A stretch of DNA of 64,000 nt, taken from assembly GCA_964428355.1 (NCBI GenBank), contig CAYRYU010000009.1:13043-77042 (forward strand). The letters run 5' to 3'. Positions 32,004 through 36,557 of the stretch are shown piece after piece (position 1 is the stretch's first letter; every line of letters begins with the position of its first letter). Origin of the DNA: an uncultured bacterium. GTDB lineage: Bacteria; Muiribacteriota; Ozemobacteria; Ozemobacterales; Ozemobacteraceae. Under the pieces are notes generated by a model that ran no database searches, had not been told where the DNA came from, and saw only the letters and a program-made list of their open reading frames with translations. The position numbers and the translations under genes were made by a program.

Positions 32004-35000
32004 ATGCAGGGCTCAAAAAGGAACCGATTCACGCTTTCGGGAATCACGATAGGCTGGTTTTGCGCGGTTTTTCTGCTCTCATTTTCTTTTTTCCAGCCGG
32101 TTTGGAGCATGGATTTCCAGAATGGGGATGCCGTCACCATCCATACGTACCATGGAGCAACGCTTTACGCCTGGTATGACAAGAACGGGACGGCCATTAT
32201 TAAAGGCAAGCCTGCCAACTTGCTTCCCCAGAAGAACTTGGTTACCGAGAAGAACGCGGCCGACCCGGTTCCCGCAGGGGATGTCTTCGCGGTGGTTCCC
32301 CTCGGTGGGAAAAAGGTCGCACTCCAGACCTACCGGGGTGATTTCGTCAGCATCGACCTTTCGAACCCGAAGAAGATCCTCGTTGCAAAAGATCGGAAAG
32401 CAACGGCAAACTCCACCTTCGAGTTGGTCGACCAGGCCAACGGGTCGGTGGCACTGAAAGCTTCGAATGGGCAATATGTCAGCGATCAGGTGGGATATGT
32501 GGGAACGGTTCCGCACCTTGCGGGTTGGGAGGAGTTCAAGCTTGAAAAGAGACCTTTCTTCTATGGCGGGAAGAAAATAAGGTTGAGGGTTCCCAACGCG
32601 AGATACTGGTCGGTCAACAATCCAGGCTGGATCTTCACGGCAAACCGCGAGGAGCCTGGTTTCTGGGAAACCTTTTCCGTCACCTCCATAGAAGGTTCCC
32701 CGACCAAGGTCTGCATTCAATCCCTCGATGGAATGTTCCTCTCCAAGCGGTGGGAAATGCCCGAATTCCCGCTCATTGGAGGGGTCCAGCATTTGGCGGG
32801 GTGGGAAAAATTCGACGTCGCTTTCGATTCGGGGAACCGGGAACTATTGACCCTGAAATCCGTCGAGGGAGGCCGGCAACAGATTTCCGGCTTCGCCTTC
32901 GAGGTTGTTCCCCCTCTTCCCGAACCGGAGTTCAAGACCACCTATTGGGTGTTGAACCCGTTTTCAGCCTACAATTCCCTGAGGTGCGCCTATACCACCG
33001 AACATGAGACGATCTGGTGCAGCAAGAACCAGGGCCCCGCAACCGTTGTCACGGTCGGCCGCCCCAAGGTTCCGGACGGCTGGACCTTCCTCGGGGACAT
33101 CATCGACAAGGGGGAAAAGAACCCCAATCTTCCCTGCCTCATCGTCAGGGACAACCCCGATGTCCTGGCCAAGCCAGTCGGGTTCCGGGTTGTCTGGGAT
33201 GACTCGAGAAACCCGGAAAACGGAAGTTGCCAGCATCTCACGATCTGGTATCCGGTCCCTCCCAAGGGCTTCGTATCGCTGGGTTGTGTCGTCACTAACC
33301 GGGGAGCCAAACCCCAGGAGATTCCTGCCCTCGCGAACCTTCGTTGCGTCAGAACGAGTTCGGTCATGACCGCCGACTGGGACCAGGAAATCTGGAACAG
33401 CGACGCGGCCAAGACCAAGAGCAACGTCGGATTGGTCGGGATCAAGGCCGGAGAGACGAAACCCTGGGACACAACGGTGAATGGCGCACTTCCCCTTGTC
33501 CCGGGGACTTTCATTTCGATCCGGCGCGATTCCCAGACCGCCTACCTGGTTCATGGAAATGATGGTGGAGGGTCTTATTTCAAGGATTTCGCCCCCCCGG
33601 GAACCGTTCTGGTAGGTCTGGATATCAGGCAGGGATGGTATACCGACGGCATCCGTGGACTTTTCCAGGATCCCGACAACCCGAACGGGCCGATTTTCAA
33701 ATCTCCCGGTAGGGGAGGCACGGGAGGAGGCGAGAGAAGGGCAATCAAGCCGGGATATGTAATCGGCAACCTCTTCTACAAAAGAGGGGATATCATCGAC
33801 GGTCTGGTGGTCCATCTCTTCAAGCTCGTCAACGGAGTCCCGGACATCAAGCAGCGGTATGGAAACGCCGAATGCCGTTTCGAATCCGACCATGGTGACG
33901 GGGAATGGCAGGCATGGAACATCGATCGCGAGCAGGCGGACATCCTCGCCGGAATCCGCGGATTCTGCGGCAGCATGCTCGACGGACTGGGCATGATCGA
34001 ACAGTATGCCATCCCCTACGCGCTCAAGGGTTTGACCCCGGAGCAGGTGAAAACCCAGGCCCTGGCTGCAGCCCTTGCGGAAGGCGAGGTCAACAAGGCC
34101 TACCGGGTCGAGGCTCTGGTCGACAAGAAGTTGGAGGGGGTCAACAACACCGCTGATGCCCCCGTCCAGCCCACCAACGAAGGCGGTCTCCTGAATCTCA
34201 TCAAGAACGCCAATGCATCAGCCTCGGCGAACATTCCCTCAGGCCCCAAGGCCAAGGAAGAACTCGTCGTTTCGGTCCCCCGCCCTCCGACCACTCCCCG
34301 CCCGGTCATCGAACCGGAAAGCAGGTTCAAGAGCCTCGTCGACAGCCTGAAGCAGGGTCCCGAAGCGAACCTCAAGTTCGGTGCACTCCCCGGGTTCGAG
34401 AACGTTTCCTTCCTGAAAAACGCGGCGATCACCAGCCCCAGAATTTCCTCTGGAGCTCAACCATTTCCCTGGATGTGCATTTCCGGCGAAACGAGCCTCG
34501 ATTTCCCGGTTTCCGCCGGCGCGGTCAAGGGGAAGTTCTTCGTGGTAAGCCGCTGGACGAAATCGGAGGGAATCCAATCGGCCCTAATGTTCTTCCTCTC
34601 CCCCTCGGAAGTCAAAAAGGTCGGAATCCTCGGAGAAGTCCCGCTAAAGTATGTCTTCGTTACCGGTTGCATCATGACATATGCTCCCGAAGCCCATTCC
34701 TGGGATTTTGCCCAGTTTCCCGAAAATGTCCGGAACGAAATCAAGGCCAACACCCCAATCGAGGCGGGGGAATTCCGTTTCGCCCAAAGTACCGGGGCGG
34801 TCTTCGGCGCCCGCCCCCAGGACGTTCCCGTTCTGAGGGACATCCTAGGCGTCTTCCTCCAGAAAGTCGAGACGATGCTGTTCACGGTCACCTTCCCCAA
34901 GGTCAGAACCGACCCCACCATCGTTCAAGCCAGTTTCAACACGGATTTCAAGAAGCTCTTCCCCGCCTTCATCACCCTCACCGACCCGAAGCTCGAGTTC

Positions 35001-36557: not shown

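Follow-up and report, generated by a model that had tools for sequence, protein, structure and literature searches.

A Sec-signal protein with three kinds of lectin-like binding domain and an apparently orphan C-terminal module in an uncultured Ozemobacteraceae bacterium

An uncultured bacterium of the family Ozemobacteraceae carries, on a stretch of 64,000 nucleotides of its DNA (GenBank assembly GCA_964428355.1, contig CAYRYU010000009.1, positions 13,043 to 77,042; here termed the window, to which positions refer unless another sequence is named), a single gene for a protein of 1517 amino acids (aa). The gene occupies 32004-36557 on the forward strand and ends in the stop codon TGA (36555-36557). 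Its product joins a Sec-type signal peptide to beta-trefoils, a beta-tripod and a jacalin-like beta-prism, followed by a linker and by a large C-terminal module that consists of a beta-rich body and an amphipathic helical tail. The body, which is confidently modelled, appears to be a structural orphan, and the module is constant in a family whose N-terminal lectin modules are swapped. By analogy, and tentatively, we read the protein as a Sec-exported, glycan-targeted effector of a toxin-like kind that may engage membranes or lipids. The parts of the protein and its flanking signals are:

31800..31999, forward strand: AT-rich upstream intergenic stretch (39.5% GC), likely promoter region
31992..32001, forward strand: Shine-Dalgarno sequence GGAGGAGGGG, two bases 5′ of the ATG at 32004
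32004..32108, forward strand: Sec-type signal peptide, aa 1-35 (basic n-region, hydrophobic stretch, cleavage-type end)
32109..32918, forward strand: two fascin-like or CBM92-like beta-trefoils, aa 36-305, six subdomains (Pfam and PDB similarity)
32526-32537, forward strand: intact W-E-x-F motif WEEF175, predicted sugar site
32664-32675, forward strand: intact W-E-x-F motif WETF221, predicted sugar site
32802-32813, forward strand: intact W-E-x-F motif WEKF267, predicted sugar site
32961..33518, forward strand: beta-tripod domain, aa 320-505 (Pfam Vps62, PF06101), including PKVPDGWTFLGD and IWYPVPPKGFVSLG
33516..34013, forward strand: jacalin-like beta-prism I domain, aa 505-670, three Greek-key units (family profile)
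33633-33647, forward strand: G-x-x-x-D motif GWYTD of a Greek-key unit, aa 544-548
33786-33800, forward strand: G-x-x-x-D motif GDIID of a Greek-key unit, aa 595-599
33969-33983, forward strand: G-x-x-x-D motif GSMLD of a Greek-key unit, aa 656-660
34014..34373, forward strand: Ala/Pro-rich linker, aa 671-790 (120 aa), ending in a Pro/Thr-rich spacer
34374..36197, forward strand: family-defining beta-rich body, aa 791-1398 (~610 aa; AlphaFold2 model and family alignment)
35145..35186, forward strand: signature motif IPGEWKNPLGIKGL, with W1052 conserved in 97% of 116 family sequences
35652..35699, forward strand: Asp-rich loop TGVGPDRKIGTNDDCP, with D1222, T1227, D1229 and D1230 conserved in 83-90%
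36198..36554, forward strand: amphipathic Gly/Ala/Asn-rich helical tail, aa 1399-1517 (~120 aa; sequence periodicity and AlphaFold2)
36576..36612, forward strand: terminator-like hairpin of the intrinsic type, AGGGCGCCTCC...GGTAGGCGCCC, followed by TTTCCTTTCT (folding energy)

The C-terminal module sets this protein apart. None of the ~730 residues that follow the linker match Pfam or NCBIfam, and the body has no PDB counterpart by Foldseek at E ≤ 1e-3 (best E = 7e-3, template-modelling (TM) score ~0.1) and nothing among the predicted viral structures of BFVD, which upholds the earlier description, made from the sequence without database searches, of the ~800-aa C-terminal region as unknown. 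That sequence-only reading had proposed looking for MACPF, aerolysin or Tc folds in this half; the result is negative in Pfam and in Foldseek against the PDB, and pore-forming effector folds more widely (MACPF/CDC, aerolysin, leukocidin, Tc and colicin) give no Pfam hit to the module and TM scores of ~0.1. NCBIfam returns nothing for the protein as a whole, no Pfam or NCBIfam profile places it in an enzyme family, and the PADLOC (anti-phage defence) and PHROGs (phage) models yield 0 families in either set. AlphaFold2 modelled the C-terminal module with a predicted local distance difference test (pLDDT) score of 83.6 and a predicted TM score of 0.71 from an alignment of 68 sequences; with an alignment of two sequences, the C-terminal region reached a pLDDT of only 35.7. 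The predicted body has ~33 strands, mostly of ~10 residues, arranged in antiparallel meanders with a few helices, and most of the strands have one hydrophobic face; long helices of lower confidence come after it. Internal repeats were sought in the body with hhalign and none was found (best probability 46%).

Conservation within the body is greatest at aa 1040-1245, the core that holds the motifs IPGEWKNPLGIxGL and TGxGPDxKxGTxDDGP. In the alignment of 137 sequences, conservation falls on Gly, Pro and hydrophobic positions together with W1052, D1120 and the Asp-rich loop, and these do not amount to a catalytic-looking set; the loop may bind Ca2+. The linker that precedes the body begins with a helix motif that the family conserves, IP..(Y/W)(A/V)LKG(L/M)(T/S)P(E/D). 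At the other end, the tail holds approximately seven 11-residue repeats (aa 1431-1507), and its 11-residue periodicity is pronounced (lag-11 z = 8.9; 3.2-8.6 in eight relatives). The chain ends in an aromatic W-F, and many family members likewise terminate in an aromatic pair (NWF, KFW, SWF or GWF). Matches of the family profile to PDB entries (designed bundles, colicin A at E = 0.28 and apolipophorin III) involve the tail only and were treated as compositional; a match to 9k2v, an 'internal virion protein' (E = 0.013), and weak matches to phiKZ_IP, SH3BP5, Phasin_2 and SseC were rejected on the same ground.

An exhaustive profile search of 1.84 billion representative proteins retrieved 135 representatives of the C-terminal module at E ≤ 1e-3, of which 68 remain at ≤ 1e-10 and 19 at ≤ 1e-30. 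The named members belong to Ozemobacteraceae, Rifleibacterium amylolyticum, Verrucomicrobiota and the cultured Chlorobium (Pelodictyon) luteolum DSM 273, and are annotated by NCBI as 'Vps62-related protein' or as hypothetical. A scan of metagenomes with the family alignment gave no confirmed relative. Around the constant module, the N-terminal lectin modules (tectonin, ricin-B and fascin-like) are swapped across the family. Pfam finds Vps62 in 13 of 42 members, Tectonin in 5, Fascin, FRG1 or DUF7910 in 5, DUF4214 in 5 and RicinB in 1, and local jackhmmer searches over 141 retrieved sequences (which include the window protein, a duplicate entry, the protein P0003, and two plant VPS13-like proteins that lack the C-terminal module) count 22 sequences with the tripod, 13 with trefoils and 10 with the jacalin-like domain. 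The closest relative, P0002, has a tectonin propeller in place of the first trefoil and a further trefoil inserted ahead of the body, while P0016 consists of a signal peptide and the beta body alone. At least nine loci or representatives (at the 50%-identity level) have in common the order of trefoil or tectonin, beta-tripod, jacalin-like domain, linker and C-terminal module. The earlier view that this is not a described bacterial family thus holds in that no member has been characterised (no paper on any of them was found in the literature), and fails in that the architecture recurs. In other members, which are 1500-2100 aa long (P0026, P0038, P0041, P0053, P0058 and P0064), the stretch corresponding to body residues 393-461 occurs three to six times, and this points to a sub-unit of the orphan fold that can be duplicated.

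The N terminus carries the features of an export signal. Its n-region contains K5, R6 and R8, the hydrophobic stretch (aa 9-31) is the sole hydrophobic segment of the protein (KD19 > 1.6), and the V-W-S end is of the cleavage type; there is no lipobox in the signal peptide, and P0002 carries a classical signal peptide. The transmembrane or signal anchor proposed earlier for this end is therefore present and looks like a Sec signal peptide. The region that follows, when aa 36-319 were scanned alone against Pfam, matched Fascin (PF06268, 26.2 bits against a cut-off of 23.1) and DUF7910 (PF25490, 42.5 bits against a cut-off of 35; 36.1 bits in the whole protein), and its best matches among solved structures are CpCBM92A/B (7zoi_A, E = 3e-6; 7zoh_A, E = 3.1e-6), in agreement with the fascin-like trefoils first proposed. 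CBM92 (a family of carbohydrate-binding modules, CBMs) consists of trefoils that bind beta-glucans via the Trp-Glu pair of the WExF motif ending each subdomain (PMC11039641). This motif is kept in three of the six subdomains, one in trefoil 1 and two in trefoil 2; the others read GDVF, NSTF and GFAF and have lost the Trp-Glu pair. The HLAGWE(E/K)F strings that had been taken to end trefoil units are present, but they end subdomains of two different trefoils and not whole trefoils. The 1029-aa protein P0003 from a JGI metagenome fuses a papain-like peptidase C1 to a long fascin-like run with near-perfect GWETFKL repeats, so trefoils of this type also serve secreted enzymes.

The Vps62/DUF946-like domain that had been recognised next in the chain is confirmed by Pfam, which scores Vps62 at 52.8 bits over aa 328-505 of the whole protein (gathering score 22.1; relatives 24.6-59.4 bits). 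The Pfam 'Vps62' domain is the beta-tripod (PMC10683392, PMC7613979), and the segment is similar in sequence to GNIP1Aa (PDB 6fbm) at E = 0.0026; the tripod of that protein is reported to mediate specific receptor recognition (PMC10683392, citing Zaitseva 2019). For the jacalin-type domain, support comes from family profiles and not from Pfam: Jacalin (PF01419) does not match the window segment and reaches 15.4 bits against a cut-off of 22 on the segment of a related locus (L003). With a family profile of four sequences, all 26 PDB matches were jacalin-type (best E = 0.002), and with nine sequences the profile matched banana lectin (1x1v) at E = 1.7e-6, 25 of its 28 matches at E ≤ 1 being jacalin-type. 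The three GxxxD motifs align in register with the loop through which jacalin-related lectins bind mannose, GXXXD being a sugar-binding motif of these lectins (PMC4059138), and the prism has Gly-rich loops at aa 521-524 (GGGS), 571-576 (GGTGGG) and 630-633 (HGDG). In the motif string first given for this domain, GIRG...LDGLG is present and a strict GG.GG.F is absent, the nearest forms being GGGSYF and GGTGGG. As judged by sequence similarity, all three N-terminal domain assignments stand, and the protein would carry up to six plausible sugar sites in addition to the tripod.

The gene itself is real because the protein shares ~50% identity in both halves with P0002, a metagenome protein of 1730 aa (JGI sample 3300037657), and more relatives exist. 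P0002 is the one close full-length relative among 5.8 billion clusters; the window protein is identical to a single database entry, P0001 (NCBI and Logan). An open frame spans 31578..36557, and the ATG at 32004, two bases 3′ of GGAGGAGGGG, is the biologically sensible start. All of the motifs quoted in the sequence-only reading occur in the protein (HLAGWEEF, HLAGWEKF, TIWYPVPPKGFVSLG, GIRG...LDGLG and AKFAVNAANETAKAAVTAANEVANVGK), and the strong Shine-Dalgarno sequence and terminator that it had assigned to the gene were both recovered. The G+C-rich hairpin at 36576-36602 has a centroid energy of -20.8 kcal/mol (z = -4.0 against shuffles) and a T-rich tail, TTTCCTTTCT; a scan for consensus terminators did not pick it up. 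A sigma-70 consensus was looked for in 31800..31999 and none was found. The AT-rich neighbourhood described earlier is confined to these 200 bp upstream, since the gene body has ~57% GC, the window average. A recent horizontal island was rejected because the GC of the gene equals that of the window, which is chromosomal (ffh at 1680-3026, lepB, phoH and corC are present). The Ffh encoded there shares 80% identity with the Ffh of metagenome-assembled genomes of Candidatus Riflebacteria/Ozemobacteraceae.

Several known systems resemble parts of this design. In Vibrio cholerae cytolysin (VCC), a beta-trefoil and a beta-prism serve in targeting, and the prism binds cell-surface carbohydrate receptors (PMC5614477); both VCC and the window protein are secreted-type bacterial proteins in which trefoil and jacalin-like prism are joined to a separate effector or candidate effector domain. 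The lectins of VCC, however, lie C-terminal to a leukocidin-fold cytolysin core, whereas those of the window protein lie N-terminal to an orphan body of ~610 aa and a tail, lack any accompanying leukocidin similarity, include fascin/CBM92-type trefoils and add a beta-tripod. The tripod is shared with GNIP1Aa, an insecticidal protein of Chromobacterium that combines it with MACPF and in which it is reported to recognise the receptor specifically before a different domain forms the pore (PMC10683392); the window protein has no MACPF, and its tripod is placed mid-chain between two other lectin types. Natterin-like proteins, Dln1 and the lamprey LPFP have an N-terminal jacalin-like lectin with GXXXD followed by a pore-forming domain of aerolysin-like type (PMC5605768), and so share with the window protein a lectin of this kind N-terminal to a beta-rich part; they are eukaryotic and ~310 aa long, whereas here the C-terminal domain, more than double in size, matches nothing aerolysin-like. 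CBM92 modules such as CpCBM92A/B of Chitinophaga pinensis (7ZOI/7ZOH) have the same WExF motif closing their subdomains, but they sit on glycoside hydrolases and are mostly trivalent; the window protein has two tandem trefoils, three sites of six and no recognisable catalytic module. The 'Vps62-related' entries (Chlorobium luteolum Plut_1031-type, Ozemobacteraceae, Rifleibacterium and Verrucomicrobiota) are true homologues that share the tripod and the C-terminal module. The Riflebacteria members share the whole architecture, whereas those of Chlorobium and Verrucomicrobiota lack the trefoil and jacalin-like modules; for the two C. luteolum paralogs the identity is 27-28%. Their name reflects a Pfam hit only, and the closest full-length relative is only 50% identical.

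The interpretation we prefer, which we hold at somewhat less than an even chance, is one of a targeted effector. The protein would be exported via its Sec signal peptide, and its N-terminal half would form a multivalent recognition array of CBM92-like trefoils, beta-tripod and jacalin-like prism that docks it onto the glycan-bearing surface of another cell or matrix. Separated from this array by the 120-residue linker, the C-terminal module would be the working part; the tail, with its hendecad (11-residue) amphipathic pattern, and the amphipathic beta sheet of the body may engage a membrane or lipid surface, so that the module, as an effector, would damage membranes or perturb lipids. Here we infer that sugars are bound, that export goes past the periplasm and that membranes are acted on; the grounds for the interpretation are head swapping, the existence of a stand-alone body, the retained sugar-site residues (three WExF and three GxxxD motifs), the amphipathic periodic tail, the lack of a catalytic signature and the use of these head types in pore-forming toxins. 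Lectin heads that vary on a constant C-terminal module suit a design of targeting plus effector, and P0016 implies that the body functions without a displayed passenger. Each type of N-terminal module is the targeting part of an independent family of pore-forming toxins (VCC, natterins and GNIP1Aa). Comparison of the window with four related loci (L001, L002, L003 and L005) revealed no conserved neighbours, immunity gene or dedicated secretion genes in the five, which fits a self-contained secreted protein. Against this stand several points. The case for a toxin draws only on analogy with the N-terminal modules, a pre-stem hairpin of amphipathic, Ser/Thr-rich character was not recognised, and the tail is modelled at low confidence (pLDDT 32-64). 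A Sec signal in a diderm producer reaches only the periplasm, and the one sign of an export route is the secretin next to the family genes in C. luteolum. The host is an uncultured Riflebacterium of obscure ecology, and CBM92 modules are normally found on glycan-degrading enzymes and not on toxins (PMC11039641).

Both options named in the sequence-only reading, a lectin-targeted toxin and a surface glycan-binding module, stay plausible. A self-anchored surface adhesin or matrix cross-linker fits almost as well, and we regard it as possible though not probable. Body and tail would fix the protein in or on the producer's own outer membrane or surface layer, with the linker projecting the lectins outward, where they would bind exopolysaccharide, partner cells or particles. 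In autotransporter and other surface adhesins, binding modules are N-terminal and are followed by a spacer and a large C-terminal module; the window protein, with its Ala/Pro-rich spacer of 120 aa, has the order of many surface adhesins. The aromatic pairs at family C-termini recall the ends of outer-membrane proteins, yet here the last ~120 residues are helical and the chain does not end in a terminal beta strand. Similarly, the top Foldseek matches, none of them significant, are to large antiparallel sheets or barrels (LptD, ushers and VDAC), but a TM score of ~0.1 to all of these barrels means that the model is not a canonical outer-membrane barrel. The surroundings of the gene in the window are rich in giant surface proteins (Big_5, RCC1 and Sel1), and trivalent CBM92 modules are reported to cross-link glycans (bioRxiv 10.64898/2026.04.08.717144). 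On the other side, P0016 has the body and nothing to display, and Pfam and hydropathy reveal no transmembrane segment, lipobox, LPXTG motif, SLH domain or C-terminal domain of the type IX secretion system by which the protein could be anchored.

Two further explanations are less likely than either of these. In one, which is unlikely, the body would be a glycoside hydrolase or a polysaccharide lyase of a kind not yet described, served by the trefoil, tripod and jacalin modules as CBMs. CBM92 modules are normally attached to carbohydrate-active enzymes (CAZymes) of many families (PMC11039641), P0003 couples the same trefoil type to a papain-like peptidase, and many lyases bind Ca2+, as the conserved Asp-rich loop could. 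However, the 137 aligned sequences lack a conserved Glu/His/Lys/Arg/Tyr set of the sort that hydrolases or lyases typically have, Pfam and NCBIfam give no enzyme match, no CAZyme in the PDB matches the fold, and the hendecad tail is given no role. Least probable of all, and only slightly credible, is an envelope protein that handles lipids or bridges membranes, in which the anchor, the long amphipathic sheet and the terminal helices act like those of AsmA/TamB or of VPS13-type (RBG) proteins. Plant VPS13M has beta-tripods, and VPS13X has a trefoil and C-terminal amphipathic helices (PMC7613979, PMC10683392). The one-sided hydrophobicity of most model strands would suit such a sheet, vitellogenin, ApoB100 and OrfX2 appear with their lipid-binding sheets among the weak Foldseek matches, and the first homology search drew in orchid VPS13-like proteins. 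These were drawn in via the tripod, though, and similarity to VPS13 is limited to that accessory domain; Pfam gives no AsmA, TamB, DUF490 or Chorein hit, the Foldseek probabilities are 0.04-0.16 with TM scores of ~0.1, hhalign finds no repeating five-strand unit (best probability 46%), and lectin modules of extracellular type make little sense in a periplasmic bridge.

The gene sits amid genes for large repeat proteins, and the following neighbours were identified:

14716-17385, forward strand: 889-aa protein, nearly all ankyrin repeats (Ank_2, 413 bits)
21463-23085: HEAT-repeat protein
26227-27864, forward strand: 545-aa open reading frame (ORF), no Pfam match
29327-31705, reverse strand: 792-aa Big_5 protein, divergent from the lectin gene
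36746-37402, forward strand: 218-aa ORF, no Pfam match
37403-38539: Sel1-repeat protein
39089-47194, forward strand: 2701-aa giant with ~15 Big_5 Ig-like domains, bMG1, PPC and a C-terminal RCC1 propeller

The Big_5, Sel1 and 2701-aa Big_5/RCC1 proteins lie close to the lectin gene and the ankyrin protein farther off; the ankyrin, HEAT and Sel1 proteins together concentrate 'eukaryote-like' repeats in a phylum that is uncultured and free-living. The 218-aa ORF and the Sel1 gene look co-transcribed because the ORF ends at 37402 and the listed start codon of the Sel1 gene is at 37403; this ORF was not found next to relatives of the lectin gene. In C. luteolum DSM 273, the family locus (L004; CP000096.1, 1159176-1178688) encodes paralogs of 1170 and 1150 aa, each with tripod and C-terminal module, that flank an Inhibitor_I42 gene, a TPR-secretin and a bestrophin-like gene. 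This species is the sole cultured carrier seen, and its locus alone hints at an export route. The locus L002, from the metagenome-assembled genome of an uncultured bacterium, encodes a metallo-beta-lactamase-fold protein at its positions 11860-12687 (forward strand) with a match to Anti-Pycsar Apyc1 (116.7 bits), ~3 kb downstream of the family member.

The targeted-effector interpretation can be taken further, to a proposal that we consider doubtful: the C-terminal module may represent an unrecognised class of membrane-inserting, pore-forming or lipid-extracting effector, deployed by Riflebacteria, Chlorobi and Verrucomicrobiota against glycan-coated cells, with interchangeable lectin heads setting the target range. 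If the module were membrane-active, it would constitute a new structural class of glycan-targeted bacterial toxin, in phyla with almost no experimental biology. The lectin heads come as natural modules (of CBM92-like, beta-tripod, jacalin-like, tectonin and ricin-B types), which, if the interpretation is correct, would make them relevant to understanding how microbes antagonise one another in anoxic habitats and to engineering target-specific binders or biopesticides. The cultured carrier C. luteolum DSM 273 makes experiments possible and, whatever its function, the body of ~610 aa, with ~135 representatives, makes a good case for defining a new domain family.

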